From a virus (lineage: Duplodnaviria; Heunggongvirae; Uroviricota; Caudoviricetes), in IMG/VR virus record IMGVR_UViG_2548876858_000016: 19,882 nucleotides of DNA. The stretch is one strand, 5' to 3'. Position 1 is the first letter of the stretch. Every line of letters begins with the position of its first letter. This document shows positions 6,072 through 19,882 of this stretch, piece after piece. Below the pieces are notes generated by a model. The model ran no database searches, was not told the DNA's origin, and was given only the letters and a program-made list of their open reading frames with translations. The position numbers and the translations under genes are program-made.

Positions 6072-7385
6072 ATGGATAAAGTCAAATATCCAACAGGCGT
6101 CGAAAACCACGGTGGCACATTACGCATCTGGTTTAATTTTAAAGGTAAACGTGTCAGGGAAAATCTTGGTGTCCCTGACACTGCCAAGAACAGGAAGATC
6201 GCCGGAGAGCTGCGGACATCTGTATGTTTTGCTATTCGTACAGGAAACTTTGATTACGCTGCGCAGTTCCCTGACTCTCCTAACCTCAAGGCTTTTGGGG
6301 TAAGTAAAAAAGAAATTACGGTGAAGGAACTTGAAGAAAAGTGGCTGGATCTGAAACGAATGGAAATCTCTGCAAATGCATTCAATCGCTATGAATCCGT
6401 TGCAAGAACGATGGTTCCGAAAATTGGAGGCAGCAGACTGGTGTCATCGGTAACTAAAGAGGAATTGCTGTATATCAGGAAAGATTTGCTGACCGGATAT
6501 CAGAATTCAACGAAAAACAAAGCAGCAGCAAAAGGACGGAGCGTCGTTACTGTAAATTATTACATGACGACAATCGCTGGAATGTTTCAGTTTGCTGCAG
6601 ATCACGGTTACCTAGAAGCAAATCCTTTCCAGGGAATTAAGCCTCTTAAAAGAGCCAGGGCAGAGCCAGATCCGCTAACTCGTGACGAATTTATTCGCCT
6701 GATAGATGCTTGCCGACATCAGCAGACGAAAAACCTGTGGTCATTGGCTGTGTACACAGGAATGCGTCACGGTGAACTGGTCTCCCTGGCCTGGGAAGAT
6801 ATCGATCTGAAAGCAGGAACTATTACTATCAGGCGCAATTATACGAAACTCGGTGAGTTCGCTCTACCTAAAACTGAAGCAAGTACAAACAGGGTTGTGC
6901 ATCTTATCCAGCCCGCTATCAGTGTCCTGAAAAATCAGGCTGAAATGACAAGACTGGGTAAGCAGCACCACATCAAGGTTCAACTACGTGAATATGGGCG
7001 TTCAGTGAATCATGAATGTACTTTCGTATTTAACCCCCAGGTGGTTAGAAAAAGCAAACAGGTCGGTTTTATCTACAAGGTAGATTCTATTGGCGACTCA
7101 TGGGAAACAGCCATTAAGCGTGCGGGCATCAGGCACCGGAAAGCATACCAGTCACGACACACTTATGCGTGCTGGTCATTATCTGCCGGAGCAAACCCAA
7201 GCTTCATTGCCAGCCAGATGGGCCATGCAAGTGCCCAGATGGTGTTCAATGTATACGGAGCATGGATGACTGACAGTAATGCAGAACAGATCGCAATGCT
7301 GAATCAGAAGCTGGCAGATTATGTCCCAATGATGTCCCATGGTCACCAAAGTGACACAAGAGACTTATTAAAATCAGTGGGTTAG
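6072..7385 (+). CDS. int: Tyrosine site-specific integrase (phage integrase family)
   Basis: 437-aa ORF; GGAGGT SD; C-terminal catalytic-domain pattern (TGMRHGEL, HxxR-type segment SRHTYA, catalytic Tyr in NVYGAWM); stop lies directly at the junction with the host-gene fragment. Confidence 0.9.
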   Translation: MDKVKYPTGVENHGGTLRIWFNFKGKRVRENLGVPDTAKNRKIAGELRTSVCFAIRTGNFDYAAQFPDSPNLKAFGVSKKEITVKELEEKWLDLKRMEISANAFNRYESVARTMVPKIGGSRLVSSVTKEELLYIRKDLLTGYQNSTKNKAAAKGRSVVTVNYYMTTIAGMFQFAADHGYLEANPFQGIKPLKRARAEPDPLTRDEFIRLIDACRHQQTKNLWSLAVYTGMRHGELVSLAWEDIDLKAGTITIRRNYTKLGEFALPKTEASTNRVVHLIQPAISVLKNQAEMTRLGKQHHIKVQLREYGRSVNHECTFVFNPQVVRKSKQVGFIYKVDSIGDSWETAIKRAGIRHRKAYQSRHTYACWSLSAGANPSFIASQMGHASAQMVFNVYGAWMTDSNAEQIAMLNQKLADYVPMMSHGHQSDTRDLLKSVG

Positions 7386-7399
7386 CCTTCAATACCCGT

Positions 7400-7813
7400 C
7401 ATGTTAACTGTGTGGAGGGTAACACCACGCTTTATGCCCTGCCGAAACCCGAGGTTGTCCTGCGCTGGCGTGAGCAGACCACAGATGACTTCCGCTTCTG
7501 TTTTAAGTTTCCGGCGACTATTTCGCATCAGGCAGCATTACGGCATTGCGATGATTTAGTGACTGAATTTTTGACCCGCATGTCACCGTTGGCTCCGCGC
7601 ATTGGACAATACTGGCTGCAACTGCCTGCCACATTCGGCCCACGGGAGCTGCCTGCGCTTTGGCATTTTCTCGACTCTCTTCCCGGCGAATTTAATTATG
7701 GTGTGGAAGTCCGCCATCCACAGTTTTTCGCCAAAGGGGAAGAGGAACAAACGATTAATCGCGGTTTACATCAGCGCGGCGTTAATCGGGTGATTTTCAT
7801 CAGACACGTTTAA
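7400..7813 (+). pseudogene. yecE: Internal fragment of a DUF72-family host gene (yecE-like), disrupted on both sides
   Basis: Frame encodes ~135 aa (VEGNTTLYALPKPEVVLRWREQTTDDFRFCFKFP...GVEVRHPQFF...) with no plausible start. Assignment to DUF72/yecE is from memory of the family. The fragment sits between the integrase and the serine recombinase. Confidence 0.5.
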
Positions 7814-7914
7814 ATACACCACCTAAAGCGATACAATCTAGGGGTTGGTAGATGATTCGGATGAAGCATCCTCATAACAAGCCCAACTGCTATTAGTTTT
7901 TATGGTGGTAAAGA

Positions 7915-9438
7915 ATGAAACGTGTAATCAGCTACATCAGATTCAGTTCTGAGCGACAAGCCAAAGGCGACTCACTACGCAGACAGTCTAAGATGGTTAA
8001 TGACTGGCTTAAGGCTCATCCTGAGTACTACCTTGACCAAGATTTATCCTTCCGTGATTTGGGGGTGAGTGGGTTCACTGGTAAGCACTTGAAAGGTGGC
8101 TTAGGTGACTTTTTAACCGCTATCGAGAAAGGGCTTGTTAAAGCTGGTGATACGCTCTTGATAGAATCTCTTGACCGTCTGTCACGTCAAGATGTAGACC
8201 AAGCAAGTGAGCTACTCAGAAACATTCTTCGCTCTGGTGTAGATGTGGTCACCTTGTCCGATGGTGAACATTACACACGAGAATCTCTTAAAGACCCGTT
8301 AGCTCTGATTAAAAGCATTCTGATAATGCAGCGGTCGCATGAGGAGAGTTTGAGGAAGTCTGAGCGTATACAAGCTGCATGGAACCGTAAAAAAGAACTC
8401 ATCTCTGAAGGTATCAAGATTTCTAAACGTTGTCCTGCATGGCTTAAGCTTAATGATGACCGTAAAAGCTTCTCTGTAATCCCTGAGAAAGTGGAGACTG
8501 TGAAGAGGTGCTTTCAGCTACGGTTAGAGGGTAAGTCTATCTGGGAGATTGTCAGGACTCTTAATGATGAAGGTCACCAGACGCTTAACCAATATAAAGC
8601 GGGTTCATTTGGTCAAACCTCAGTACAAGACCTTCTGAAAAATCGCTCTGTAATTGGTTACTTCACACCTAAAGGCTGTGAAGAGATAGCTGATTATTAT
8701 CCTGCAATTATAGATGAAACAACATTCTACAAAGTCCAGCAACTATCATATGCTCGTTACGGTAGAAAACCTGCTTCAGATAAGCCAATGGCTGTGAATC
8801 TTTTCAAAGGTGTTATCCGTTGCTCTGAATGTGGTCATGCTCTGATTATCACAGGCTTTAGCGATACAAGAAACGGGATTTATCGCTGTCCCCTTCGTAA
8901 TGAAAACCGTTGTAGTGCTAAAGGGCTGTCACGTAAGCAAACCGATGGTACATTGCTTACCCTGCTATCTCGTCTTGACCGATTTGATAGCGATACGACG
9001 AATACCATCGATACACTGAAGTTACACCGTGAACACATCTCAAGCAATATTGAGAAGCTGGTACAGCTATCACTTGAAATTGAAGATTTGTCAGCTATTA
9101 CCAGCAAGCTAAAACAACTAAAGAATGAGCTATCACAGGTTGATGCGGATATCGAGAAGGAGACACAACGCCTTAAATCTATTGATGTGGGGTGTTTGTC
9201 TGATTGTGACTTGACTACAAAGGCGGGAAGGATTGAAGCACAACTGATAATCAAAAGTGCTGTTAAAGAGGTCGTTTTAAATACTGCTAAACGTCGATGT
9301 AAAGTGACTTTTCACAACGGTAAGGTAATTGACCTACCAATAACAGAAAACCCCTCAGACAACGTTACAGAGGCTATACAGTCGCTTTCTGAAGTCACTG
9401 AGAGGGGTTTAATAGATGTTGATGAGGTTATCATATAG
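7915..9438 (+). CDS. Large serine recombinase (resolvase catalytic domain + recombinase domain + zinc-ribbon)
   Basis: 507-aa ORF; N-terminal YIRFSSERQ with catalytic Ser; Cys cluster CSECGH...YRCPLRNENRC; C-terminal coiled coil. Confidence 0.85.
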   Translation: MKRVISYIRFSSERQAKGDSLRRQSKMVNDWLKAHPEYYLDQDLSFRDLGVSGFTGKHLKGGLGDFLTAIEKGLVKAGDTLLIESLDRLSRQDVDQASELLRNILRSGVDVVTLSDGEHYTRESLKDPLALIKSILIMQRSHEESLRKSERIQAAWNRKKELISEGIKISKRCPAWLKLNDDRKSFSVIPEKVETVKRCFQLRLEGKSIWEIVRTLNDEGHQTLNQYKAGSFGQTSVQDLLKNRSVIGYFTPKGCEEIADYYPAIIDETTFYKVQQLSYARYGRKPASDKPMAVNLFKGVIRCSECGHALIITGFSDTRNGIYRCPLRNENRCSAKGLSRKQTDGTLLTLLSRLDRFDSDTTNTIDTLKLHREHISSNIEKLVQLSLEIEDLSAITSKLKQLKNELSQVDADIEKETQRLKSIDVGCLSDCDLTTKAGRIEAQLIIKSAVKEVVLNTAKRRCKVTFHNGKVIDLPITENPSDNVTEAIQSLSEVTERGLIDVDEVII

Positions 9439-9452
9439 TTGAGATTCTATCG

Positions 9453-10226
9453 TCAGTAGCGCTTATTCGGATTCACCGAAAACTTCTTCAAAGTACTACC
9501 TGTACCAGCATTATTAAGCACCTTTGAAGCTTGCTCATTAGCGGCATCTGAGAAGGTGCTTTTTCCGTTCTTAACTCTGACATTCCTACCACAATTGATA
9601 CGGGCTTGAAGTTGCTCATTAGAAAGTTCACTCGTAGAGCGATTATATAGCTCCTGACACATCAACATACCGTTACCTAAGCTTGTCGTAGTGTTCCCTG
9701 TATTCTTTTTGCTGGTAGCACCACCATCATTTGTAGTAGCTGTCTTTCCAGTAGCAGCCGAAATATCAGTTTGACCCACAATAGCTTTAAAGTTAATTTC
9801 CTGAAAAGTTAGCTGGATTCTTAGACCATTTGAAATACCAACATCTTTAGAGGCTTTAAAGCTTGTAATAATGGAGTCATCAATTTTAATACCATCTTTA
9901 CAGATGACCGAAATAATCTGCTTCTGGTCACGCCAGTTTTCAAGAGTGTCGATGAAGTTCTCCACCAGCTTATTATCTCTTGAGATAAGGATACTACCGG
10001 ATTCACCAACCACAACCACACCACTGATTGAAATAGTTCTTGGTGAACGCATTACATTATCTGTTACAGTCTGCCCTGATTGCATATTTTGAGTGGTCAC
10101 CATCATAGGGCTGTCATATTCCATCTGTTCAGTTGCTGATAAGGTTAAGAAATTATCTGGCTGTCCTTGTAGATGGAAGTAAACACCATCTTTACCAGTG
10201 TAACGAAGCTGACTAGTGTAAATCAT
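9453..10226 (-). CDS. Hypothetical protein (257 aa); possible tail component by position downstream of the tape-measure-like gene
   Basis: Track ORF; GGAGA SD 5 nt upstream of ATG; convergent with the recombinase gene. No domain recognised. Confidence 0.55.
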
Positions 10227-10309
10227 TAAATTCTCCTTTGATTTCAGAGACTTAGTGTATTTTAATCATTTTTAACCAAGCCTTTGATATATAAGTGTTT
10301 TCTCTGTTA

Positions 10310-10376
10310 AGCGTGAGCTACGTAAAAAATAATTTTTGGTGGGTATATCTGTTCAGAAGATTTCACGTAGCACACG
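10310..10376. promoter_or_regulatory. Copy A of a duplicated intergenic regulatory element (AAGCGTG..TACGTAAA..GTGGGTAT..CAGA..TTTC..ACGTAGCACAC)
   Basis: Shares ordered conserved blocks with 12501-12594; arms CGTGAGCTACGT / ACGTAGCACACG form an 11/12 inverted repeat; lies upstream of gene 9453-10226. Confidence 0.5.
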
Positions 10377-10389
10377 GATATATAAGAAA

Positions 10390-12480
10390 TCATTCTTCCT
10401 CTGGATAGCTTGAACTTAAGAGCATATCCTGCGTGAACTGGTCATTAGCTGATTGATTGAAAGTAAAGAAAGCTGGTTCATCCGGTCTAACAATTGCTTC
10501 ACCAGTGATATTAACTGACAAGGGCTTCTTAGCTTCTACTGTTAAAGCATCAACCTTGCGTGATAGCTCACTAATAGTCATTGCAAGTTGAGCATTACTA
10601 TTAACCATGTCACCCGTAATAGCTGGTGGAGTTGATTGTGTGTTATTTACGAAGTTATTCATCGGTTCTTGGGAGTTAGCAATTTTATCAGCTGCACTAC
10701 TAAACCAACCTTTAACATCGTCCATAGTGAACACTGGTTTAAGTCCAGACTCTTTAGCTAGCTCTGGTAATTTAGCTTGTGCTTCCATTCGTTCAGGTGT
10801 AGAAGCTAATCTTTCATAACCTGCATAGATAGCACTACCAGCTAATAGCATATTCATAGGGTTTAGTCTTGATGGTTTCCCATTCTTTCTATTCACGTTA
10901 TCCGCTGTGGTATCAGCGACCTGACCTAATCTTGTGATAGCAGTCATAAGCCCGTAAATACTTCTGGTTACACCAACAACTTTATTCACAGCAATAACAC
11001 CAGCCAAGACTTTTAAACTATTAATCAAGCCAGAACCTAAAGCATCAACTACTTTCTTTTGCTCATCGGTTAAACCACGATAAGCTAATGTCACCTCATC
11101 GAAGAATGCTCTTACCCTGTAGCTGATATCAGTCAATGAATCGACACCATGCGACATATCGCTCATCAAGCTACCAAGAGATTCACCAAGACTTTTACCA
11201 CTTCCACCAAGAGCGTTTAAAAGCGTTGTTAGGCTTCTTGTGAAATCTTGAAGACCATTTTCAGAACCTCTGAAGATACTATCAAGCGTGGTATTCCAAG
11301 AGTTTTTCAAGTTCCCTAGTTGTGCCTGTGTACTTTCTGAAATGGCTTTCCAGCCACCTTTAGCGGTGATTTGTCTATTCAGTTCCTGAGTGACCTTCTG
11401 AAGAGTATCGGCAGATTTTAAAGCCCCCTTCTTCATGGCATCAAATAATTCCTGTTCACTCTTTCCGGTTGCTTTAGCGAATACCTGAACCATACCAGGA
11501 ACAGCTTCAGCCAGTTGCCCCTTAAGCTCTTCAGCCATAATCTGACCCTTACCAGCCATCTGTGATAATGCTGTCAGTGCTCGCTTAATCTCTTCTTCAC
11601 TTCTCCCCATCAGACGAGCATAGCCAATCATATTTTTAAAAAGTTCTTCAGAACCTTGAATACCCATAGACTCTTTAGCTGAAGCACCAAAACCAGCAAA
11701 CTGTGATTGCAGTTCAGCGATATCTAAACCCGTTGTTTGAGCTAATGACTTTGTGAACTCTTTTACCTGACCTGCATCTTTATCAAATACGAAATCAATT
11801 GAACGCTCAGCACTTGCACGCTGTAAACCAATTTCCATAATCTTCTGATAACTGGCTAATACAGCCTGCATTGAGATAAATGCACCTGCTGTTTTAACTG
11901 CTGCTGAAGACAGGTTATCAAGACTATTAGCTGCTCTGTCAGCATTAATGCTGGTGGATGTATGACCTCTGGCTTTAGCAATTGCTTCTCTGACTGAAGC
12001 GTTTAACTGAGCTAACTTCTCATTGAATTTTGAAGAATCCATTGACCCGGCTTTAGCAGATAGCCCGTAAAACTGAGATTTGATGTATTTCTGCAAAATA
12101 GGGTCAAAGCCTTTTAGCTTAGACATATTAGCTGAGTAAGCCGCTGTGATTGCTCTGTTGCCGCTAATTAGTGGCTGTCTTGGCTGTCTAAGTGGCTTTA
12201 AAGTATCCTCAATTTCCGTTTTAATCTTAAACGCTCTAGTGTTTTTAAGACGCTGCTCAATCTTGTCAAAGGTCTTATTAAACTTCCTTTCAAGTTGCCC
12301 TAAAGAACTTGTCAGATTGCTGTCAAGTTGCTTGGTATCGACCTTAAACGCTCTATTCAAATTGCGTTCAATTCTTTGTGCTGACTGCAAAGCTGCCTTT
12401 TCAACTCTTTGCAGTCCCTTAATAACGTTTTCATTGAAGCCTAGCTCAACGATAAAACTATCAACTGTGAATTTGCTCAT
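10390..12480 (-). CDS. Phage tail tape-measure-like protein
   Basis: 696-aa ORF; central region (GSEELFKNMIGYARLMGRSEEEIKRALTALSQMAGKGQIMAEELKGQLAEAVPGMVQVFAKATGKSEQELFDAMKKG) matches the tape-measure core pattern; coiled-coil N-terminus; GAGGTG SD. Confidence 0.7.
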   Translation of the reverse strand: MSKFTVDSFIVELGFNENVIKGLQRVEKAALQSAQRIERNLNRAFKVDTKQLDSNLTSSLGQLERKFNKTFDKIEQRLKNTRAFKIKTEIEDTLKPLRQPRQPLISGNRAITAAYSANMSKLKGFDPILQKYIKSQFYGLSAKAGSMDSSKFNEKLAQLNASVREAIAKARGHTSTSINADRAANSLDNLSSAAVKTAGAFISMQAVLASYQKIMEIGLQRASAERSIDFVFDKDAGQVKEFTKSLAQTTGLDIAELQSQFAGFGASAKESMGIQGSEELFKNMIGYARLMGRSEEEIKRALTALSQMAGKGQIMAEELKGQLAEAVPGMVQVFAKATGKSEQELFDAMKKGALKSADTLQKVTQELNRQITAKGGWKAISESTQAQLGNLKNSWNTTLDSIFRGSENGLQDFTRSLTTLLNALGGSGKSLGESLGSLMSDMSHGVDSLTDISYRVRAFFDEVTLAYRGLTDEQKKVVDALGSGLINSLKVLAGVIAVNKVVGVTRSIYGLMTAITRLGQVADTTADNVNRKNGKPSRLNPMNMLLAGSAIYAGYERLASTPERMEAQAKLPELAKESGLKPVFTMDDVKGWFSSAADKIANSQEPMNNFVNNTQSTPPAITGDMVNSNAQLAMTISELSRKVDALTVEAKKPLSVNITGEAIVRPDEPAFFTFNQSANDQFTQDMLLSSSYPEEE

Positions 12481-12500
12481 TCATATTTTTCACCTCTTTA

Positions 12501-12594
12501 AGCGTGTTGTACGTAAATTCTATTTTTCAGTGTGGGTATTAGCTTTACAGATTTCATGAGGATAATTCTTATCCGAATCATCACGTAGCACACA
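12501..12594. promoter_or_regulatory. Copy B of the duplicated intergenic regulatory element, upstream of the tape-measure-like gene
   Basis: Same conserved blocks as 10310-10376 with a ~27-bp insertion; contains CACGTAGCACACAGGAT (12582-12598). Confidence 0.5.
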
Positions 12595-12622
12595 GGATTC
12601 GATAGAAGACTATCTCATATAC

Positions 12623-12663
12623 AAAAAAGGGAGAGCTACCGATGTCACTCGATAATCTCTCCC
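12623..12663 (-). terminator. Candidate intrinsic terminator on the minus strand (GGGAGAG / CTCTCCC stem, 21-nt loop, U6)
   Basis: 7-bp GC-rich stem at 12629-12635 / 12657-12663; on the minus-strand transcript it is followed by UUUUUU (plus-strand A6 at 12623-12628). Loop is long for a terminator. Confidence 0.4.
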
Positions 12664-12688
12664 GTTGATTTTTACCCAACCAATCTTT

Positions 12689-12892
12689 TTACCTAACCAG
12701 ATAATAATTACCATCTTCACCGACAATCTGACAATCACTTGGTAATTTATCAAGACACCATTTAGCGATTCTTCTGATTCTATTCTTTTGCTTAGAGGTG
12801 GATGATTTGATTCGTTTTGGTTTGTTGGGTTGTTCTTTCAATCGTTCACTAATTGCTTTAATAAGCTCATAGCGTTCTGTTAAATCAATCAT
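12689..12892 (-). CDS. Hypothetical small basic protein (67 aa)
   Basis: Track ORF; strong AGGAGGTG SD; Lys/Arg-rich centre (KPKRIKSSTSKQKNRIRRIAK). Confidence 0.5.
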   Translation of the reverse strand: MIDLTERYELIKAISERLKEQPNKPKRIKSSTSKQKNRIRRIAKWCLDKLPSDCQIVGEDGNYYLVR

Positions 12893-12916
12893 TCACCACC
12901 TCCTTTTAATTCATAG

Positions 12917-13657
12917 TTAAAGTGCCTTTGCATATTTCTGAGAAATCTTCACTAACTGCTCAATATCAGCCTGCATAGCAATTTTCTTCTGTGATTCATA
13001 TTCACTAACAAGCTCTTTCATAGTATCAAGCTCTTTTTTAAGCTTTTGCTTTAACTTATCCAGCTTATCGGAGTAATGCTTAGTCAGATTAGCTTCAGCT
13101 AACTGAAGAATCTCTTCATCTGTTTTGTTAGTCATCAGGATATATGAGCCTGTACCACGTGAAGCTTGTCTGACATCCATTAATCGAAAACCGTCAGGAA
13201 TACTTTGAAGCACTTTTGGAACATTCTCTCTTGCTGTACCGAAACCATTGTTGTAATTTCCTTCGTAATAGATAAACGGGTTTGTCTTAAGCTCATATTC
13301 AATATCATATTCTGAAGGTTTCTGAGTTTCTTCGAAGTTTTTGACAACATCATAAGCATTATCAAGCTTGATGCGCTGCTCTTTTAGTAGTGGATAGTAC
13401 TTCCTCTCAAGTGCAATCAGAGCTTCTGTCTTGCAAACATCAGTCATTTCCAGAGGCTCAGGATTGATATATTCAAGATTATTGGCTGGAACAATCTTTC
13501 GCAGCCTTTCTTTTTTGGCCTCTTCATCTGCAAGCTTGGCAATAATTTTGTGATAAGGTTTCATATGTGCATACTCATCTCCTTCATCAGTAAAATGCAA
13601 ATCATATGCACAAGGTTTTCTATCAACAATCGCTTCATGTTCATCACGGATAGACAT
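12917..13657 (-). CDS. Hypothetical protein (246 aa), charged with coiled-coil C-terminus
   Basis: Track ORF; GAGGAAAA SD ~9 nt upstream. Confidence 0.55.
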   Translation of the reverse strand: MSIRDEHEAIVDRKPCAYDLHFTDEGDEYAHMKPYHKIIAKLADEEAKKERLRKIVPANNLEYINPEPLEMTDVCKTEALIALERKYYPLLKEQRIKLDNAYDVVKNFEETQKPSEYDIEYELKTNPFIYYEGNYNNGFGTARENVPKVLQSIPDGFRLMDVRQASRGTGSYILMTNKTDEEILQLAEANLTKHYSDKLDKLKQKLKKELDTMKELVSEYESQKKIAMQADIEQLVKISQKYAKAL

Positions 13658-13692
13658 TATTATTTTTCCTCTTCTAAGATAATTTATGTTTC

Positions 13693-13774
13693 AGTTTTTA
13701 AAAAGCACACCTGACAGCCTACGAACTTAGAAGAGACTTAAAAGGCGGTTTGCCAAGTGCGCTTTTTAAAAGCT
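13693..13774. repeat. 18-bp inverted repeat (AGTTTTTAAAAAGCACAC ... GTGCGCTTTTTAAAAGCT, 16/18) with ~47-bp spacer
   Basis: Seen directly in the sequence, inside a 470-bp ORF-free gap between minus-strand genes. Confidence 0.6.
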
Positions 13775-14130
13775 GAAAAAGCCCTAGATAACTAAAACGC
13801 TATAAAGGGCTAAGGTGAAGAAATTAAAGAACATCCAAAGGATTCAATAACGAATGAACAAAGACTTTTTGAGATAGCCTATCTAGTGTGGGCTAAATAG
13901 GCCATGACGAAAAGCATTGCACCTTTCCAACTCAGAATAACTATCATTGATGTAGAATGATTAATAGTTTAATTCAGGAAGAGTTGCTCTCCCCTATTAC
14001 CATCATCTCATGCTTAAGGTTATTTGTCAACAGCTTTTAACAGATTGATAACATCAATTCTTATTTACTGTGTTACCCACCCAGCAACCAACAAATAAGC
14101 CAAGCAACGTCCAAGCAATTATTAAGCCCA

Positions 14131-14454
14131 TTAGTGAACCCTCACGGAATCCGTAACCAAAATATTATCGCTGTACAGGATTGTCACAGCACCTTTCAAA
14201 AATCGCTCTGGGGAAATACTGTATTTGTTCGTTTGCTCAATAACCAATCTTTTCATATTACTGTCTGTAATTGGTAACATCATTCGAGGCTCGTTAAACT
14301 CCACCGAGTGAATAAAGTCAGAGATGCTTTCCGCATTATCAGCCATTAACTCTAACAACTTATCAAAGTCAATGCTAACACCTACATCAGTGAAAGCCTG
14401 AATCATCATGGCGGTGTCGGTATCAATAAAAATCTGTAGTGGGAAATTATTCAT
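14131..14454 (-). CDS. Hypothetical protein (107 aa)
   Basis: Internal Met of track ORF 14131..14565 (MNNFPLQIFIDTDTAMM...), with AGGA SD 9 nt upstream. Confidence 0.5.
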   Translation of the reverse strand: MNNFPLQIFIDTDTAMMIQAFTDVGVSIDFDKLLELMADNAESISDFIHSVEFNEPRMMLPITDSNMKRLVIEQTNKYSISPERFLKGAVTILYSDNILVTDSVRVH

Positions 14455-14592
14455 TTTTAAAATCCTATAAAAACACATCTTAAATCTGCCAAAATAGCCA
14501 TTCTGAGGCCAGTAACCATGCGGGTTACAGAGGGAGTGAGACACCTTAGTAATAGGGTAGCTCATCTTTGAGTCTCACTCATTCTCACAGAC

Positions 14593-14979
14593 TTACACAG
14601 ACGCTTTAATCTTGTAGTATTGACTACGTGATAAGCCGTATTTCTCAGAAATATAACTTTGTGATTGTCCTTTGGTGATTGCATCAATGATTAAATCTTT
14701 ATCGTATCTGTTACCGTTGGCTTTGTGCTTGTCACTATTTTTAATAGAGTTGAAGTTCTCCATTAATTCAATGGCGTCTTTAAGGTCGCTTTCGTAAGCA
14801 TAATCAAAACCTCTGATAAACTCGAAATCACCATTATCTTTTTGTGCTTCAGCCCAGATATCAAATCTTGAGGCTAATTGCTGGTGGGTAAACTTGGGCT
14901 TATTGGTTTGTGTTACGTCTTTCCAGACCTTACCGTCAAATCTTACCAAATGGTCACGATGCTTATAAAAATCATACAT
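14593..14979 (-). CDS. Hypothetical protein with C-terminal HTH (128 aa)
   Basis: Track ORF; GGAGG SD; C-terminal ITKGQSQSYISEKYGLSRSQYYKIK resembles a resolvase/Hin-type or small-terminase-type HTH. Start overlaps the upstream stop (TAATG). Confidence 0.55.
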   Translation of the reverse strand: MYDFYKHRDHLVRFDGKVWKDVTQTNKPKFTHQQLASRFDIWAEAQKDNGDFEFIRGFDYAYESDLKDAIELMENFNSIKNSDKHKANGNRYDKDLIIDAITKGQSQSYISEKYGLSRSQYYKIKASV

Positions 14980-15257
14980 TAAACCTCCATTGCTAATTTG
15001 TGAATTTTGATACTTAGTAATCTTGCTAAATCCAGTCCAAAGGCATTTAGAGCCTTCAGACTATCAAGGTCATCTTGCTTAATCCTGATATGGTGTCTTG
15101 CTGCCTCTAAACGACTATTAAGCAAATCCTGCTCGTTAATATCACGGTTAATTGCAAGCTTCATCACTGCTGAGTGTGGCAGACCTGTAATGTTTTTGAT
15201 TCGGTTAAGTTCGTCAAAGGCTGTCTTTGTAACTCTGGTTAAAGTGTGCTTAGTCAT
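14979..15257 (-). CDS. Hypothetical protein (92 aa)
   Basis: Track ORF; tightly packed between neighbours in one minus-strand operon. Confidence 0.5.
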   Translation of the reverse strand: MTKHTLTRVTKTAFDELNRIKNITGLPHSAVMKLAINRDINEQDLLNSRLEAARHHIRIKQDDLDSLKALNAFGLDLARLLSIKIHKLAMEV

Positions 15258-15260
15258 TAT

Positions 15261-15824
15261 TTAAAATCCTTCTGCTTGTGCGTACACGTCAAATTCAAAG
15301 TCTGGCTCACTGCTTGTAAGACTGATATTACCAACGGTAATATGATGCTCGACAATACCAATTAACTTTGCGCACATCACAGCAAGTAATGCGCAATAGG
15401 CATCGCTTGGTAACTCATGGCTTAACCTGGTTGCCTGACGCTGGAGATGGTTTGTCACGGTAGCTGAGTTAATTTCATCAAGATTCTTTAGAAGATAAAA
15501 CAATTTCTTGTTGTATTTTGGGTGCCCCTCACTTCTGCAAAATCCGATAAGAATGTCGTCAAGCTTGCTCGGTAATTGCTCGTAGCTGTCAAAGTTAGCC
15601 AGATAATTCTTGATGCTGTTCTTTGTTGTTTTGCGTACTGACATATAACGACTCCTCGGTGTAATTGCCCGAATTACTTCGTCAATGCCTTTGCGTTCTG
15701 CTCTGGTGAACTTGGGTGCTTCGTGGCTGGTGGGGGAGTTTGTGTAGCTGTAGGAGTTGTAGGAGTTGTATCTGTTACGTTGTCTCGATGCCTGAAGCAT
15801 CGCTCTAAATTCTCTGTCGTTCAT
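15261..15824 (-). CDS. Hypothetical protein (187 aa) with in-frame 9-bp tandem repeat
   Basis: Track ORF; AAGGA SD 11 nt upstream; GTAGGAGTT x2.3 at 15750-15770 encodes NSYNSYSY. Confidence 0.55.
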   Translation of the reverse strand: MNDREFRAMLQASRQRNRYNSYNSYSYTNSPTSHEAPKFTRAERKGIDEVIRAITPRSRYMSVRKTTKNSIKNYLANFDSYEQLPSKLDDILIGFCRSEGHPKYNKKLFYLLKNLDEINSATVTNHLQRQATRLSHELPSDAYCALLAVMCAKLIGIVEHHITVGNISLTSSEPDFEFDVYAQAEGF

Positions 15825-15910
15825 TCATAAGCTAGTCCTTATAATTGTTAATTCTCTGTTAACTTATATAGACAATACTAGCATTTTCAAAGACTAATGT
15901 CAAGCATTTT

Positions 15911-15940
15911 TTAACATTTCATTAACATCTGTGGTATAAT
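15911..15940 (+). promoter_or_regulatory. Candidate sigma70 promoter with extended -10 (TTAACA-18-TGgTATAAT)
   Basis: TATAAT at 15935-15940 preceded by TG at 15932-15933; TTAACA at 15911-15916. Confidence 0.5.
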
Positions 15941-16122
15941 GGTTCTATGGGGAGAGTAAAATATAAAGGCGTGGCTATGAGAGTGGTCATATGGTTATTG
16001 CATTGCACACAGACCTCTTCAATCGCTCTGTAACGAGTTAAATGGCCTCTTCAGGTCAACATATAAGGTCAGGTACTTTTTTGTGTCAGAATGCGATTGA
16101 GAGCGTCTTACAAGGAAAACTA

Positions 16123-16299
16123 ATGGTAAATCTCCCTCCTGAGCTGGGGTCACCTGATGTATGGGCTGGTGGAGGTGTTGGGCTGATTGCAGGTCTGCTA
16201 CTTCGCTACGTCCTCGTCAGAGTGCTTGTTGTCTTTAAACTGTTCGGTCGTACATGGACGCTTGACCTTAAGGATAACGACCACACAGAACCCCGTTAA
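16123..16299 (+). CDS. Candidate small single-TM protein (58 aa)
   Basis: Internal ATG of track ORF 16042..16299, with AAGGA SD 6 nt upstream; hydrophobic segment VGLIAGLLLRYVLVRVLVVF; downstream of the 15911-15940 promoter. Confidence 0.35.
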   Translation: MVNLPPELGSPDVWAGGGVGLIAGLLLRYVLVRVLVVFKLFGRTWTLDLKDNDHTEPR

Positions 16300-16340
16300 A
16301 CTCCCTTCAAAACCCCCTGTACGTGATGGTATAGGGGTAT

Positions 16341-16357
16341 CTTTAGCATTTTGTGCT
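16341..16357. promoter_or_regulatory. Copy 1 of 17-bp dyad motif CTTTAGCAWWWWGTGCT
   Basis: CTTTAGCATTTTGTGCT; internal dyad AGCA-N5-TGCT; same motif recurs at 17471-17487 and inverted at 17501-17517. Confidence 0.45.
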
Positions 16358-16525
16358 ATCTATTAATAAATAGCTTGACATAACCGGAAAACTGAATCTA
16401 TCAAGTATTCACCCCTCTGACAGTAATTTCTAAAAATGCTTATTTTTCAATGAGTTGTAATTAGCCAATATAAAGGACTGACAAGACTCTTCACAGAGAA
16501 CTTTCAAGACTCACTAAGACACAAG

Positions 16526-16562
16526 GCGATAACCCCAGACAGGGAGAGCCTCCTTCTTAACC
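16526..16562. repeat. Direct repeat copy A (GCGATAACCCCAGACAGGG...TCTTAAC)
   Basis: ~75% identical to 16696-16732; contains a CCCC-N5-GGG mini-hairpin. Confidence 0.5.
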
Positions 16563-16695
16563 GACTTCTTAAACAATCTTTACAGACCCCCGTTCACCAG
16601 TCTCAATATTTTTATTTCTCGCTCTTCGTTTTTTGCTCGTTTCTATTATTGAGGGGGTTTGAAAAACCTCTGTAAAATAACCCTTCCAGTAAAAA

Positions 16696-16732
16696 GCGAA
16701 TAACCCCAGAAAGGGGAAATCGCATCTTTAAC
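16696..16732. repeat. Direct repeat copy B (GCGAATAACCCCAGAAAGGGG...TCTTTAAC)
   Basis: Pairs with 16526-16562; contains the perfect hairpin CCCCagaaaGGGG. Confidence 0.5.
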
Positions 16733-16763
16733 ATTCTCGTAATCAGTGCTCTATATGAGAACT

Positions 16764-17432
16764 TCAGCCCAACCTTTGAACAATCCTGTAAGTGGTGCTT
16801 AGAGGTATTCTTAGCGATTCTGCGATGCTCTTGATGGGTTGCCCTTGGTCATACATTTTAATCAACCTGTCAAGCGTCTGTGCATCGTGCATATGAGGTC
16901 TTCCACGTAAACCACCCCTGTTAACCACGGCAAGTAAAAGCATTGTGTCACCACAATAGATTGTCTGGGTAACTTCAACTTTCGGTTTGCGGGGTGTGTT
17001 CCTGTATATCAAAACGCAACTTGGAAACGGTGAGCGCACTACAACACCTCTCTTTCCTGCTGGTGGAAGGTATTTGACTGCTCGGTGTAACGTTCGAATC
17101 TCATGCAGGAAGGGGTTTGTATATACACACCGAAGCCAGTAAGTTGTCTTTGACCTGAGCGGAACCAGACATACACACACATCAGCTTCAGGGGCTTTTA
17201 AGAGGAACTTTTCAGCCATGCTAAACGGCGGGTTAACGAAGACCCGTTCACCAACCCATGATTGATTGTGAATATCATCGGTGAACCGTGGCAACAATGC
17301 GTCATACTCAGTTGCAGCACCATCTAGACTGAAGTTAAACTCACGATGCAGGTTATGAAATAAACGATACGGTGTACGCCAGTCATCAGAACCACCATGA
17401 TAACGACCAACATTGATTATTGGATGCGACAC
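16764..17432 (-). CDS. Phage Dam-family N6-adenine DNA methyltransferase fused to a C-terminal resolvase/Hin-type HTH
   Basis: 222-aa ORF with GTG start (AGAGGGG SD ~10 nt upstream). N-terminal ~150 aa shows DDWRTP...F.F.LDGAA...NPPFS...SPFPS, which I recognise as the phage Dam MTase pattern; C-terminal GRPHMHDAQTLDRLIKMYDQGQPIKSIAESLRIPLSTTYRIVQRLG resembles a serine-recombinase HTH. Confidence 0.7.
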   Translation of the reverse strand: MSHPIINVGRYHGGSDDWRTPYRLFHNLHREFNFSLDGAATEYDALLPRFTDDIHNQSWVGERVFVNPPFSMAEKFLLKAPEADVCVCLVPLRSKTTYWLRCVYTNPFLHEIRTLHRAVKYLPPAGKRGVVVRSPFPSCVLIYRNTPRKPKVEVTQTIYCGDTMLLLAVVNRGGLRGRPHMHDAQTLDRLIKMYDQGQPIKSIAESLRIPLSTTYRIVQRLG

Positions 17433-17470
17433 AAGCGAAGCGCCCCTCTTAGTATATTTCTTAATCGTCT

Positions 17471-17517
17471 CTTTAGCATTTAGTGCTTTTTGTTAAGTTT
17501 AGCACTTTTTGCTAAAG
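17471..17517. promoter_or_regulatory. Inverted pair of the 17-bp dyad motif, upstream of the Dam-HTH gene; candidate operator
   Basis: CTTTAGCATTTAGTGCT (17471-17487) and reverse complement of CTTTAGCAAAAAGTGCT (17501-17517), 13-bp spacer; 40-85 bp upstream of the GTG start; a minus-strand TATACT -10 candidate lies at 17451-17456. Confidence 0.45.
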
Positions 17518-17944
17518 ACAAAAGCATTGACAAAATGGTAGGATTGTTCACATAGCCCTTACTTAACAGACTCTTAAGAGCTTTGAAACAGCCTGTTTAA
17601 CAAGGTCACTACCTCTGGTCTTATCGTTCCCTTCTTTCTAGGTAGTCATCTGTTAAGAACTTTTCAGTTTTATTCTTAAGATAATTGTTAAGATGATACT
17701 CTCCCTTCGGGTTATATCGTATCTCTCCTCCCGTTAAATATCCCTTCACAGTCAGACTAAATAACACCTGTGTAGTTTCTTGGTAGAATCTTTCAAGGTA
17801 ACTTAACTCTGAGTTTATGAAGTTGACCTATGAGATAGACTCTACCGAATCTGTTAGTCAATTGTTGCTTAGGTGCTGCTAAGGCTTACTTAGTGGGAAG
17901 AGAGGGAATATGTGACCATAGGAACCCCTCCTGTTAAAAGCTTC

Positions 17945-17972
17945 TTGACGTTACTATCTCGATATGTATAAT
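17945..17972 (+). promoter_or_regulatory. Near-consensus sigma70 promoter (TTGACG-16-TATAAT)
   Basis: TTGACG at 17945-17950, 16-bp spacer, TATAAT at 17967-17972; no credible ORF downstream. Confidence 0.5.
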
Positions 17973-17979
17973 GGCTTAC

Positions 17980-18148
17980 TGTACTAGGTTTACTTCCAAA
18001 GCAACCAAGCACACTCTCTATGGCAGTGTCCAGCGAGGTAAGGTCGTGTAGGGTGCGGTTCGGTGGGGTAAGGTTTGGTGCGGTATGGGTGGATTGTCGT
18101 AGCCACGTTAAAAATCGACTTATAGGGACTCTTTCGGGAGTCCTTTTT
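17980..18148 (+). ncRNA. Candidate ~170-nt small RNA bounded by promoter and intrinsic terminator; G-rich internal tandem repeat
   Basis: Starts ~7 nt after the -10 and ends at the 18125-18148 terminator; contains GGTAAGGT...GGTGCGGT twice (18046-18095); the only overlapping ORF (18020-18298) reads through the terminator and looks non-coding. Confidence 0.4.
18125..18148 (+). terminator. Rho-independent terminator (GGACTC-tttcgg-GAGTCC + T5)
   Basis: 6-bp stem at 18126-18131 / 18138-18143, T-run 18144-18148; plus-strand specific. Confidence 0.6.
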
Positions 18149-18298
18149 AGTTTGTATAAAATCTGTACAGTAACTTTTCAGAGTCTGAAAATTTTTATAA
18201 ATATCGTAGTAACCCCTCTACATTCCCCTTCACCGATAATTTTCAAAAATATCTACACTCAATTGATGGCTGTTAAGTACCCCAGATTCACGATATAG

Positions 18299-18308
18299 CC
18301 CCCCCCCC
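18299..18308. repeat. Homopolymeric C10 tract
   Basis: Ten consecutive C in intergenic DNA, immediately upstream of a promoter-like TTGCAA-16-TATAAC (18310-18337). Confidence 0.9.
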
Positions 18309-19048
18309 TTTGCAAAAGCAGTTAAAATATCTATAACCAACCATTGACTTTCTTCATGATATCTGTTTAGCCCCACCTCAATAAGCCATCATCACACATC
18401 AAAGCATCTATCAAGAAGGTTTAACCTATCAATAGCTGTAACATTTTATAGTTCTGTGAAGTCCTATCCAGTTTTCTCTGTAACAGCTACAAACTTCTGT
18501 GACCTTATGTGTCAATGACTTATAAGACATGCTCTCAAGGTGCTGTATAGCCTCTTATCAGCCAATACACAAAACCCTTATAAATCAGTACTGATATGTA
18601 TACAGTATGTTTTTAACATAATAGCTGTTTTACGCACTAATAAGCACCTACGTAGATTCTGTATAGAGATTAAGATGTCTCTAAGTGATTTTTTAAGAGG
18701 AGATACGAAGGAACTATAACCATCACTTCATAACTTTCACGTAGGTAACTATTAAGTAGGTTGATAGTCACTTTGAGGGAATATTGATAGTGACCAACTG
18801 CATAGACACCGTTATATAGCCCTGTATATAGCACTATATGTAGTGTCTGGAGAGGGACGACTAACACGATATAGTTTACCCTGAAAAGAGGATTTACAGA
18901 TTCTCTATACATTTCAATAAGTTATGATAAAAAGGGGCTATGTCGATACTGTATAGAATCTGTGTAGGATTGCATAGATACTTGGAAAAATACCGTTAAA
19001 TTGCATAGGTACTAACCTGTTTATGTCCTGTTATTTACAGGCATAGCA

Positions 19049-19882
19049 TTATTGGTTAATTAATTCATCCGACTCTATATCATTACCTTTTTCTTTTTCC
19101 TTTTTAATTTTAGCCTCTACCATATCGAACATTTTCATTGTCTGTGATGAAGTTAGCTCTTTCTTTTGTCGTAGCGCGTTACGTATGGTAGAAGCTTCAA
19201 TATCAGAAACTGTTAAAAGTTCTTCTACCCTACTCTTCAATTGCTGTAATGAACGGCTATTATCAACTTTAAAGAAATCATCCATTACCTCAAGTGAGGC
19301 AACAATCAAATCCTGTAGTCTCTCTTTTTCTATCTCGATATTTTCAATGGTTTGTTTTTCTTTAGATACTAACTGCTTTAAATTATTAATTTCTTTCTGA
19401 ATCAGTTTCTTCTCTGTCTGTAGCTCTTCTGTGACCAGCTCTTCACGCTTACCACGCTCTACTTCCGCTTTAATATCAGCATCAATTTTAGCATTTTCTT
19501 TCTCTTCTTCTCTGGCAGCCCGAACCTTTAACCCCGTTAACCTGATTGAATCCAAGTATTCTTTTTCCTTTGTAAGATAAACATTTTCATTGTGTTTATC
19601 TGTAGCCCATTTTTGAGCAAGAGAAAGTAACCATTGAGCATAAGGAGTAATAACAGCTAGCACACCTCCAAAAAAGACAGGAGCAAGCAGATAATGAGCG
19701 TAAAAATATTCCTGAGATAGTATATAATCTATTCGAAACTTAACAGGCGCATCACTCATAAAGAGCATTGCTAAGTTAGGCCAGTTGAACCATACCCATG
19801 CAAGAATGATATATCCCCATAATGGGCTTTTAATCCTATCGTTTATTGCTTGCATAGTAGAATCTAACCACCCATCACTCAT
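19049..19882 (-). CDS. Membrane-anchored coiled-coil protein (two N-terminal TM segments + long K/E-rich coiled coil); start at or beyond window edge
   Basis: Track ORF; hydrophobic segments LWGYIILAWVWFNWPNLAMLF and YLLAPVFFGGVLAVITPYAQWLL, then heptad-like K/E-rich sequence. The Met at 19880-19882 is the last codon in the window, so the true start may lie outside. Confidence 0.55.
   Translation of the reverse strand: MSDGWLDSTMQAINDRIKSPLWGYIILAWVWFNWPNLAMLFMSDAPVKFRIDYILSQEYFYAHYLLAPVFFGGVLAVITPYAQWLLSLAQKWATDKHNENVYLTKEKEYLDSIRLTGLKVRAAREEEKENAKIDADIKAEVERGKREELVTEELQTEKKLIQKEINNLKQLVSKEKQTIENIEIEKERLQDLIVASLEVMDDFFKVDNSRSLQQLKSRVEELLTVSDIEASTIRNALRQKKELTSSQTMKMFDMVEAKIKKEKEKGNDIESDELINQ

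Follow-up and report, generated by a model that had tools for sequence, protein, structure and literature searches.

The window, the whole stretch of 19,882 nucleotides that was analysed, carries a tape-measure protein (TMP) gene that is bracketed by two copies of a short intergenic cassette, both of which are oriented with the sense of the minus-strand genes. Copy A separates the TMP gene from the gene of a Dit-like tail protein, and copy B is placed between the TMP gene and a terminator.

9453 to 10226, minus strand: gene of a Dit-like tail or 'baseplate' protein, 257 aa (PF21821, E = 2.5e-19; PHROG 3721, E = 1.6e-127)
10302 to 10376, minus strand: copy A, with the TMP stop codon (10390-10392) on one side and the leader of the Dit-like gene on the other (nhmmer E = 1.5e-21)
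10302 to 10314, minus strand: gene-side tail of copy A, ACGCTTAACAGAG, outside the inverted repeat
10315 to 10331, plus strand: gene-proximal (3') arm of copy A, GAGCTACGTAAAAAATA on the plus strand, inverted relative to the 5' arm (arm score 18.1)
10357 to 10373, minus strand: gene-distal (5') arm of copy A, GTGCTACGTGAAATCTT (arm weight-matrix score 25.4, the top score in the window)
10390 to 12480, minus strand: TMP gene, 696 aa (PHROG 4036, E = 2e-83)
12494 to 12594, minus strand: copy B, between the intrinsic terminator and the TMP ribosome-binding site (nhmmer E = 8.8e-17)
12506 to 12522, plus strand: gene-proximal arm of copy B, GTTGTACGTAAATTCTA in plus-strand reading (arm score 16.3)
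12554 to 12580, minus strand: 27-nt insert of copy B, TGATTCGGATAAGAATTATCCTCATGA, which includes a separate GGATAA/TTATCC hairpin (from sequence comparison of the copies)
12575 to 12591, minus strand: gene-distal arm of copy B, GTGCTACGTGA, followed by the insert (arm score 14.1)
12623 to 12663, minus strand: Rho-independent terminator with a 14-bp interrupted stem and T6, which closes the p246-p67 genes upstream and borders copy B on its 5' side

The original prediction had assumed a phage genome, but the copy-bearing DNA is an E. coli chromosomal island, satellite-like and located beside the end of a lambdoid prophage. The island is ~13 kb long, is inserted in yecE and codes for a large serine recombinase, to which some variants add a small serine recombinase; the lambdoid tyrosine integrase nearby belongs to the neighbouring prophage. 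It is found in ~9% of complete E. coli genomes (about 1 in 11) and in ~480 RefSeq genomes. The closest phage homologues of the island TMP are Felixounavirus TMPs (~29% amino acid identity), and the Dit-like gene is a homologue of Felix O1 ORF68 (72% amino acid identity by tblastn, ~85% DNA identity by megablast). Sequence comparison marks the TMP ends and the Dit gene as Felixounavirus-derived, and both genes stem from Felix O1-type phages. Literature searches returned no paper on a Felixounavirus satellite. The 'transposase' label that PGAP attaches to some p246 homologues is unsupported by Pfam, NCBIfam and PHROGs, and ARAGORN found no tRNA or tmRNA gene in the window. The terminator has a minimum free energy of -21.1 kcal/mol (z = -4.2), which none of 200 shuffles attains, and it is kept in all islands, including those devoid of copy B.

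Anatomy of the two copies

Copies A and B are homologous. Local alignment of the intergenic regions 10227-10389 and 12481-12688, read in the minus sense, gives a score of 59, far above the background of 1000 dinucleotide shuffles (mean 20.0, sd 3.5, max 35; z = 11.2). Likewise, both copies are recovered by a six-copy nhmmer profile with the E values listed above, and the same profile detects no third copy in the 19.9-kb window, only a palindromic reverse match at the same place. The shared, ordered blocks on which the original prediction was built are real, and AAGCGTG, TACGTAAA, GTGGGTAT and CACGTAGCACAC can be read in both copies. It had also proposed imperfect inverted arms in each copy and a location in intergenic DNA upstream of the minus-strand starts at 12480 and 10226, and both points are borne out, the arms lying at 10357-10373/10315-10331 and 12575-12591/12506-12522. 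Furthermore, the 13-mer GTGTGCTACGTGA is identical in the two copies (12581-12593 in B, 10363-10375 in A).

In each copy, two inverted arms (GTGCTACGTGAAATCT and its complement) enclose the asymmetric interior ATACCCAC..AAAAAT, and the tail CACGCTTAA follows on the gene side. Copy A is spaced by 13 nt from the TMP stop and by 75 nt from the ATG at 10226, and the ACGT-to-ACGT distance of its arms is 45 bp, as counted by hand from the sequences. The islands and some of the phage members (L029, L022 and L042) conserve its tail. Copy B begins 28 nt past the T-run of the terminator and ends 13 nt short of the ATG at 12480, with its tail extending into the TMP Shine-Dalgarno sequence. It is longer than copy A because of the 27-nt hairpin insert, which raises the arm spacing from 45 to 72 bp, and because of which an ungapped repeat finder and MAFFT missed or misaligned the pair. 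The insert is present in copy B of L002 and L026, and is missing from L004, L009, L013, L014, L028, L037, L038 and others. Elsewhere in the island the arm motif is not enriched according to a weight-matrix scan, and a regulon of extra arm sites was rejected, the only matches (18645 and 18747) being weak and non-conserved.

Variation among islands and relatives in phages

In all of 20 or more diverged islands (E. coli, E. albertii, Citrobacter, Shigella and IMG/VR proviruses) the element follows the gene sense, and it is positioned directly after the TMP stop and/or directly before the TMP ribosome-binding site. Copy A is kept in every intact island, even when the flanking genes are only ~66-70% identical, and the ACGT-to-ACGT spacing is exactly 45 bp in copies with strongly differing interiors. 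Copy B is precisely absent from islands L003 and L006, in which the TMP ribosome-binding site comes directly behind the terminator. Comparison of the filled (GTATG/.../AGGTG) with the empty (GTATG/AGGTG) site reveals no target-site duplication, only one ambiguous G at most. In addition, one Shigella copy is disrupted by an IS, and L057 has a third arm in direct repeat.

The TMP alleles reassort independently of their flanks among the islands. For island L004 the identities are 76% in Dit, 72% in p246 and 43% in TMP, and the corresponding values for L003 are 66%, 43% and 77%. The BLAST breakpoints between islands coincide with the edges of the element, and the interiors of the elements are hybrids or recombinant mosaics with varied breakpoints. 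TMP-deleted recombinants between B and A were considered and rejected, as no place in 480 island-bearing genomes covers at least 80% of a synthetic, TMP-less B x A junction.

Pairs of the same arms are also carried by unrelated phages, closely upstream of ORFs and 45 bp apart, a spacing that is imposed on the phage set by the search pattern (N36). The arm consensus of this family is GCGCTACGTGAAWTCTG, 17 nt long, and the 25-nt interior is asymmetric (WACCCRC..AAAAW), with an orientation relative to the downstream gene that varies between members. The family extends over P1-like phage-plasmids, lambdoid phages, T7 and GC-rich phages, and its elements lie 10-85 nt before start codons. Solitary, exact 17-mer arms are found 8-12 nt before SD-ATG in GC-rich phages, and an exact-arm scan of IMG/VR stretches yielded single or paired arms and no long element bounded by arms. 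In phage P1 the element is located at ~113-178, between lox and cra-cre, and the -10 hexamer TAAAAT (124-129) of the annotated sigma-70 promoter P3cre/pR1 falls inside its left arm. When a profile of other phage members only was run over 194 kb, it recovered the P1 element (E = 4e-6), window copy A (E = 3e-4) and copies A and B of L004. The T7 relative adjoins gene 18.5, presumably near the RNase III site R18.5, whose coordinate is not given in the record. A BLAST search of 50,697 phage records with the element returned noise only, BLAST of the L022 member returned no match, and literature text searches located the arm sequence only in a primer of the phage Skate announcement. The cassette is a widespread, intergenic element of many phages that has apparently escaped description so far.

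How the cassette may act

The reading that we favour, with a probability of about 0.4, is that the cassette is a protein-recognised DNA operator or promoter-proximal cassette that is also a recombination joint, most likely in the service of gene control and module exchange. The ~75-bp intergenic cassette would act at the DNA level, and its arms would be recognised by a DNA-binding factor that is dimeric or multimeric. As identical arms recur in unrelated phages, this factor is probably encoded by the host or shared very widely. The cassette would occupy the promoter or operator position of the following gene, the tail meeting the leader or the ribosome-binding site in islands, and from there it would set or gate the expression of TMP (copy B) and of the Dit-like protein (copy A). 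Copy B may re-start TMP expression after the terminator, and re-initiation right behind so strong a terminator would be useful. Since the same sequence is found on both sides of TMP and is shared between island variants, the cassette may also be a homologous-recombination joint at which TMP alleles and flanking modules are reassorted. Protein binding by the arms, any effect on transcription and the identity of the factor are points that we infer.

The promoter or activator module of the original prediction survives in part. It is favoured by the sense orientation directly 5' of an ORF in every island, by the position of copy B behind a strong terminator, by the conservation of the arms without compensation and by the overlap with pR1 in P1. 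On the other side, a consensus scan found no sigma-70-like promoter inside 10302-10376 or 12494-12594, manual reading showed that -35 candidates are not conserved between island variants, and L003 and L006, which have no copy B, keep TMP behind the terminator, therefore a promoter there is not indispensable. The TAGAAT/TATTTT '-10' beside the gene-side arm was rejected as part of the inverted repeat, and most phage members have CAGATT instead.

One and the same consensus is preserved in both arms, and departures from it are uncompensated, a pattern that marks a palindromic protein site and not an RNA helix. A sequence-conserved dyad, fixed spacing and a location at the 5' end of a gene, as would characterise a generic two-site operator, are all found. 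The 72-bp spacing in window copy B, however, is one that a strict two-site protein complex might not tolerate. Among the island proteins no candidate binding protein stood out, as they give only weak HTH matches. To our knowledge, the site architecture is unmatched by CRP, FruR, NrdR, MatP, SlmA, chromosomal parS, the DnaA box, IHF, RfaH ops, boxA and sigma-32/ECF promoters. An informal check with a 16S rRNA sequence gave only 7-9-nt matches, whether of similarity or of complementarity.

A more far-reaching proposal, which we put forward tentatively, is that the cassette is a member of an unrecognised but widely distributed class of phage cis-elements, in which inverted GCGCTACGTGAAWTCTG arms, 45 bp apart, enclose a WACCCRC..A-tract core. 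These elements could be read by a conserved trans factor of the Proteobacteria, and one might have been recruited by a Felixounavirus-derived, satellite-like E. coli island to control and swap its TMP gene.

The arms could alternatively work in RNA, the cassette being co-transcribed with the operon and folding into a 10-17-bp hairpin that is itself processed (e.g. by RNase III), stabilises the TMP message upstream or modulates translation of the next gene, as intercistronic hairpins do in polycistronic phage mRNAs. The sense strand of copy A indeed folds better than shuffles (-18.7 kcal/mol, z = -3.9), and this copy is probably transcribed, because no terminator separates it from TMP. Moreover, the G of ACGTG is placed opposite a T or a C of the other arm (14 G-C, 9 G-U), both of which are allowed in sense RNA, and the placement ahead of start codons and beside T7 gene 18.5 would suit such a role. 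Copy B, however, folds no better than shuffles (z = -0.6), and across 27 members 73.3% of cells are paired compared to 71.3% in column shuffles, a level reached by 27 of 500 shuffles. The covariation score of the same 27 members, 0.154 compared to 0.133 in shuffles (reached by 53 of 500), likewise does not exceed column composition, and at most positions outside the core 10-17 of the 27 sequences lack a pair. Many island copies have lost the outer stem (GTCGAATGC versus GCTCACGC) without compensation, solitary arms exist without a partner, and the interior is found in both orientations, something that a DNA site would tolerate and that fits an RNA loop poorly. A known RNA family was rejected, since Rfam gives no match at E <= 1 over the window copies nor at E <= 5 in five phage loci. 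T7-type intercistronic RNase III hairpins are likewise hairpin-capable inverted repeats between the cistrons of long late transcripts, and the cassette family has a member beside T7 gene 18.5, but the cassette differs from them in its solitary arms and lack of covariation, sequence being conserved rather than structure. An action at the RNA level seems rather unlikely.

It is also doubtful that the cassette is a selfish or neutral repeat, be it a recombination scar or a MITE-like element, whose spread through phages and islands is so recent that its conservation reflects this spread and not function. The small mobile module that the original prediction had allowed for agrees with the precise presence or absence of copy B between otherwise collinear islands, with the hybrid interiors and with the spread over unrelated phages. 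The 17-nt arms form terminal inverted repeats around a variable interior, identical 17-mers recur in unrelated phage types and in GC-rich genomes, and the IS-disrupted Shigella copy was dispensable there. However, the lack of a target-site duplication at the copy B site speaks against mobility, and no transposase is associated with the cassette. The element is restricted to two fixed positions per island in ~480 E. coli genomes, with none elsewhere in the loci examined, it invariably precedes an ORF directly and in the sense of that gene, and copy A is retained in all intact islands despite the divergence of the flanks. MITEs of the Correia/ERIC type share with the cassette the small size, the terminal inverted repeats, the intergenic location near gene starts and the presence/absence polymorphism; they differ from it in target-site duplication, and they are dispersed in many copies through a genome, while in the islands the cassette was seen at two fixed sites each and in a strict gene-sense orientation.

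Site-specific recombination, in which the direct copies are substrates of the island serine recombinases or of an integron-like system and TMP is an excisable or exchangeable cassette, is improbable. It would account for direct repeats that bracket exactly one gene with reassorting alleles, it could draw on the serine recombinases of the island, and in P1-like phages the element adjoins lox and cre. On the contrary, none of the 480 island-bearing genomes has a TMP-less junction, the arm spacing with a 25-nt non-symmetric interior is unfit for lox-type (13-8-13) or serine-recombinase crossover sites, and no matching recombinase lies near the T7 and lambdoid members. The hybrid interiors with their varied breakpoints look like homologous and not site-specific exchange. 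Integron attC sites resemble the cassette in that imperfect inverted repeats (57-141 bp) lie in direct orientation at the boundaries of single-gene cassettes; unlike attC, the cassette has GCTACGTGAA-type arms in which the R''/R' cores (RYYYAAC / GTTRRRY) are not evident, no IntI accompanies it and no excision products were found. The recombinases present are of the serine type, apart from a lambdoid tyrosine integrase that belongs to the prophage next door.

Promoters that are activated by the helper are used by satellites such as P4, and the derivation of the TMP ends and the Dit gene, together with promoter-poor copies that would fit an activator-dependent promoter, could suggest that the cassette copies a Felix O1-type late promoter or activator site and that TMP and Dit switch on with the helper late genes. 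This is very improbable, and the possibly late, coordinated expression of the original prediction is left without support: a Felix O1 origin of the cassette was rejected, as the element is absent from the complete Felix O1 genome, arm motifs occur there at chance level and in coding DNA, and its chaperone, TMP and ORF68 genes abut without spacers. The search of phage records, too, returned nothing. The TGT-N12-ACA dyad of P2 Ogr and P4 Delta is absent from both strands of both intergenic regions, and neither the T4 late TATAAATA nor the P1 Lpa late promoter (a 9-bp, AAGTGACTT-like -22 box, 4 nt and TAnnnT, compared with extracted P1 late promoters) is found inside the copies. The only match to the Lpa box, a loose 8-mer, falls downstream of copy A, in the AT-rich leader, and has the wrong spacing.

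Significance and comparison with known systems

To conclude, should the arms prove to be a true recognition signal, P1 (upstream of cra-cre) and probably T7 (by gene 18.5) harbour a conserved but unannotated element of control or recombination, which is also present at module junctions of many uncultured phages. The question of what marks and regulates module boundaries in mosaic phage genomes would then become testable, and the signal, regulatory or recombinational, would be a new one common to many model phages. An island with TMP and Dit genes from virulent Felix O1-type phages is possibly a satellite or tail-interference element of a so far undescribed kind, and the cassette offers a handle for asking when TMP and Dit are expressed and how TMP alleles are exchanged. 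Even as a neutral repeat, it would still be a defined recombination joint that explains the TMP mosaicism.

The cassette follows the same plan as lambda cosB (R3-I1-R2) and P1 parS (ParB box A ATTTCAC around an IHF site), in which inverted recognition sequences stand tens of bp apart around an asymmetric A-tract interior. Its arms even contain GTGAAAT/ATTTCAC, the P1 ParB box-A heptamer. The cassette differs from both in that manual inspection of the interior found no IHF consensus, and in that there are no box-B hexamers. In addition, the P1 copy is located at lox-cra and not at parS, and no ParB-like or terminase small-subunit partner was identified in the island.

The PeSL cassettes (promoter-early stem-loops) of T4-type phages combine a strong sigma-70-like early promoter with a terminating stem-loop (Arbiol et al. 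2010, PMC2839356; PMC4122927). Neither an internal promoter nor an internal terminator is found in the present cassette, which has no sigma-70 consensus and consists of a 17-nt inverted repeat with a 25-nt interior. Its arms enclose an interior of 25-52 nt and are not followed by a T-run, the terminator at 12623-12663 being separate and present also where the cassette is absent, and no mini-circle or deletion product was seen. Both elements, however, are short, conserved intergenic repeats that are placed at gene 5' boundaries beside terminators and that flank variable genes on both sides, and in PeSL, as in the TMP alleles of the islands, the bracketed genes are shuffled, which recombination between the PeSL copies brings about (PMC2839356; PMC4122927).

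Two copies of an inverted-repeat cassette

The ORF listing and a reading of 10100-12800 place a 696-aa ORF on the minus strand, flanked by non-coding gaps at 10227-10389 and 12481-12688, and each gap holds one copy of a cassette of about 75 bp with inverted-repeat arms. The original prediction had described a duplicated element at these places, with ordered shared blocks, inverted arms and a position directly upstream of two gene starts, all of which proved correct. Local alignment of the two gaps scores 59 (z = 11.2); 1000 dinucleotide shuffles average 20.0 +/- 3.5 and reach at most 35. A profile of six copies hits the window at two places and no others, copy A (E = 1.5e-21) and copy B (E = 8.8e-17). 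The homology is plain in gapped local alignment; the pair went unreported by an ungapped repeat finder and was misaligned by MAFFT because of a 27-nt insertion in one copy. The observation of a duplicated element is solid.

Features of the window
6072-7385, tyrosine integrase at the phiP27-like prophage end
7915-9438, large serine recombinase at the start of the island
10302-10376, minus-strand sense, copy A
10390-12480, minus strand, 696-aa ORF (tape-measure protein, TMP)
12494-12594, minus-strand sense, copy B
12623-12663, strong intrinsic terminator (-21.1 kcal/mol, z = -4.2)
17758-17787, 18638-18667 and 18928-18957, iteron-like repeats

In the minus-strand sense, copy A reads CCGTGTGCTACGTGAAATC-TTCTGAACAGATATACCCACCAAAAATTA-TTTTTTACGTAGCTCACGCTTAACAGAG and consists of a 5' arm (GTGCTACGTGAAATCT), an asymmetric interior between the arms, a 3' arm ((A/T)TTTACGTAGC) that is the inverted complement of the 5' arm, and a tail (CACGCTTAA(C/A)AGAG), with 45 bp from ACGT core to ACGT core. 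It lies between the TMP stop, 13 nt away, and the next ATG, 75 nt away. Copy B follows the same plan, plus an insert (TGATTCGGATAAGAATTATCCTCATGA, 12554-12580) that widens its arm spacing to 72 bp; it begins 28 nt past the terminator, and its tail overlaps the TMP Shine-Dalgarno (SD). The leader between copy A and the next gene (10240-10300, the 'long leader' variant) contains TGATTAAAAT, with a good -10 hexamer and a near-extended TG, which could be the actual promoter of that gene; this segment is missing from 'short leader' islands.

The island and its mosaic cassettes

The bracketed gene encodes a tape-measure protein (PHROG 4036, E = 2e-83), and the next gene a Dit-like tail protein (PF21821) with 72% identity to Felix O1 ORF68. 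A Felix O1-type phage was rejected as the identity of the window, since only these two genes resemble Felix O1, in which no spacer separates the chaperone, TMP and ORF68 genes and no cassette is found at their junctions. Window positions 1-~7400 (to 7414) are the left, integrase end of a phiP27-like lambdoid prophage (~93% identity over aligned pieces, roughly 28% of the window), and 7404-19882 belongs to a ~13-kb island interrupting yecE; the two abut, so the yecE region is common to two mobile elements. Of 5426 complete E. coli genomes, about 470-480 (~9%) have a related island at yecE or beside tonB, and such islands also occur in E. albertii and Citrobacter, with a degraded form in Shigella; no paper on the yecE/tonB island was found in the literature. 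In the island and its relatives (L002-L015) the TMP and Dit-like genes derive from Felixounavirus, and there are also about eight proteins that match no family and a Dam methylase with a fused HTH; taken together, these features suggest a so far undescribed phage satellite or tail-interference element.

Some island variants (L008, L009, L013, L014) have, in the group of hypothetical genes upstream, one for a small HNH endonuclease, as well as a second, small serine recombinase, neither of which was seen in the island part within the window. A 28-nt inverted repeat, 86% complementary (13679-13792; arms 13689-13716 and 13751-13778), lies inside the 473-nt gap between the 246-aa and 144-aa ORFs (p246, p144), where a sub-threshold Rfam miRNA match is meaningless. 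By tblastn, the 144-aa ORF (14131-14565) matches L003, L004 and L006 in two pieces that overlap (residues 1-37 and 32-144), and RefSeq annotates only a 107-aa ORF at its counterpart; a start at another position, or a shift of frame, programmed or not, could account for this. The ~1.6-kb, mostly non-coding stretch at 17433-19048 holds the three iteron-like repeats (TCTATACAG.AT...), one of which contains the palindrome CTACGTAG and resembles the cassette's gene-side arm (AGAATCTACGTAGGT), and may be an origin or regulatory region. In L006 (Citrobacter sp. ANG330), TMP is split by a ~2-kb insertion at residues ~367/~371 (6959-8928).

For 14 RefSeq loci and some 15 IMG/VR proviruses, the sequences of both junctions were extracted. 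No intact island lacks copy A, which invariably follows the TMP stop directly, runs in gene sense, and is kept even where the flanking proteins are only 66-78% identical. Copy B occurs in many islands and is exactly missing from L003 and L006, where the ribosome-binding site (RBS) comes immediately after the terminator (…TTTTTGTATG joined to AGGTGAAAAA…); comparison of filled sites with these empty ones revealed no target duplication. That the cassette is a neutral or selfish repeat is regarded as improbable. Its interiors fall into about four types, each found at either position, with hybrids joining left and right halves of different types; copy B of one island and window copy A share a 74-nt stretch at 100% identity, and the ACGT spacing is 45 bp in all island copies except the insert-bearing variant. 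Furthermore, Dit, p246 and TMP are 76%, 72% and 43% identical in L004 and 66%, 43% and 77% in L003; TMP alleles thus reassort independently of their neighbours, and BLAST segment breaks coincide with the element edges. Reassortment and breaks together mark the cassette as a recombination joint, and on these sequence comparisons homologous recombination is its demonstrated secondary role. TMP loss by recombination between copies B and A was seen in none of 480 island-bearing genomes.

A wider phage family

An exact-pattern scan of IMG/VR (CTACGTGA-N36-TTYACGTA), in which N36 imposes the 45-bp spacing of the phage set, returned 70 stretches. About ten clusters of matches look like chance, and the remainder share far more than the pattern required: on either side the arms reach as far as GCGCTACGTGAA(A/T)TCTG, and a WACCCRC..AAAA motif lies ~15 nt past GTGAAW in many members. 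These reside in P1-like phage-plasmids (told by Cre, Cra, C1 and PacB homologues), at TerS/TerL or TerL/next-gene junctions of lambdoid-type contigs, at lysis/packaging junctions, in GC-rich phages and in T7. A profile of 17 phage members, built without the P1 record, T7 and the islands, was searched against 194 kb; Felix O1 gave no match.

Matches to the phage-only profile
P1, E = 4e-6
Window copy A, E = 3e-4
T7 36,884-36,935, E = 4e-4
L004 copy A, E = 5e-4
L004 copy B, E = 2e-3

The cassette belongs to a widespread family that has apparently not been described before. In P1 (NC_005856) the element, GCGCTACGTAAAATCTG-N25-CAGATTTCGCGTAGCGC, lies at ~113-178 between lox and cra, and its left arm contains the -10 hexamer (124-129) of the annotated P3cre/pR1 promoter. 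The P1 records hold no annotation of this 17-nt inverted repeat, which is conserved in P7, RCS47, SJ46 and other P1-like phages. The T7 sequence at 36,880-36,939 (481-540 of the extracted stretch, L089), CCTACGTGAAATCTG … TTTTTACGTAAG, has the RBS and start codon of gene 18.5 between its arms and is either a genuine family member or a chance resemblance.

Scanning for the exact 17-mer recovered solitary arms as well, some 8-12 nt ahead of an SD-ATG and others directly ahead of a terminator hairpin, and one locus (L057) has a third arm as a direct repeat. In a 60-kb IMG/VR phage contig (L093, 1540-1900), a solitary exact arm lies among several direct and inverted, iteron-like GCGTAGAAGATA-type repeats, which hints that arm-like sequences can belong to multi-site protein-binding arrays.

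DNA site, RNA structure and likeness to known systems

As an RNA hairpin the cassette would act through pairing of its arms. Sense-strand folding beats the shuffles in copy A (z = -3.9) and does not in copy B (z = -0.6), and no Rfam family matches. In a set of 27 distinct members, complementarity over the 20 arm pairs is 73.3%, versus 71.3% after column shuffling (27 of 500 shuffles reach the observed value), with a covariation score of 0.154 versus 0.133 (53 of 500); a single consensus that both arms match accounts for this complementarity. Departures from the consensus are uncompensated, and in many copies from the islands one side of the outer stem is gone and the other is kept. In addition, the interior points toward the downstream gene in the islands, L018, L022 and L029, and away from it in the P1 types, L035, L041 and L049. 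A DNA site recognised by a putative protein is a better fit than an RNA helix to the uncompensated arms, both interior orientations and solitary or triple arms, and the hairpin is considered unlikely.

The element is consistently the last feature ahead of a leader or RBS and is tied to no single gene family, and is, judging by this placement, probably a general-purpose cis signal. It would serve as an operator or promoter-proximal module for a putative, broadly conserved factor, a reading that we hold tentatively (probability about 0.4). A consensus scan found no sigma-70 promoter in the cassette copies, and a promoter at the copy B position is not essential because islands without copy B exist. 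The original prediction of a promoter or activator module, or a small mobile one, was thus partly right: the cassette does precede a leader or RBS, but a sigma-70 promoter and a target duplication are missing.

The finding is more interesting than first apparent, as the family is widespread and includes an unannotated P1 inverted repeat, and as the tape-measure gene enclosed by the cassette copies is of phage origin and lies in an E. coli island that is common and uncharacterised. Among known systems, a MITE was rejected for want of a target duplication, and the defining features of an integron attC site, the P1 Lpa promoter and an Ogr/Delta promoter are absent. Although it lacks the sigma-70 promoter and built-in terminator that define the PeSL cassettes of T4-type phages (PMC2839356), the cassette is functionally analogous to them as a recombination joint.
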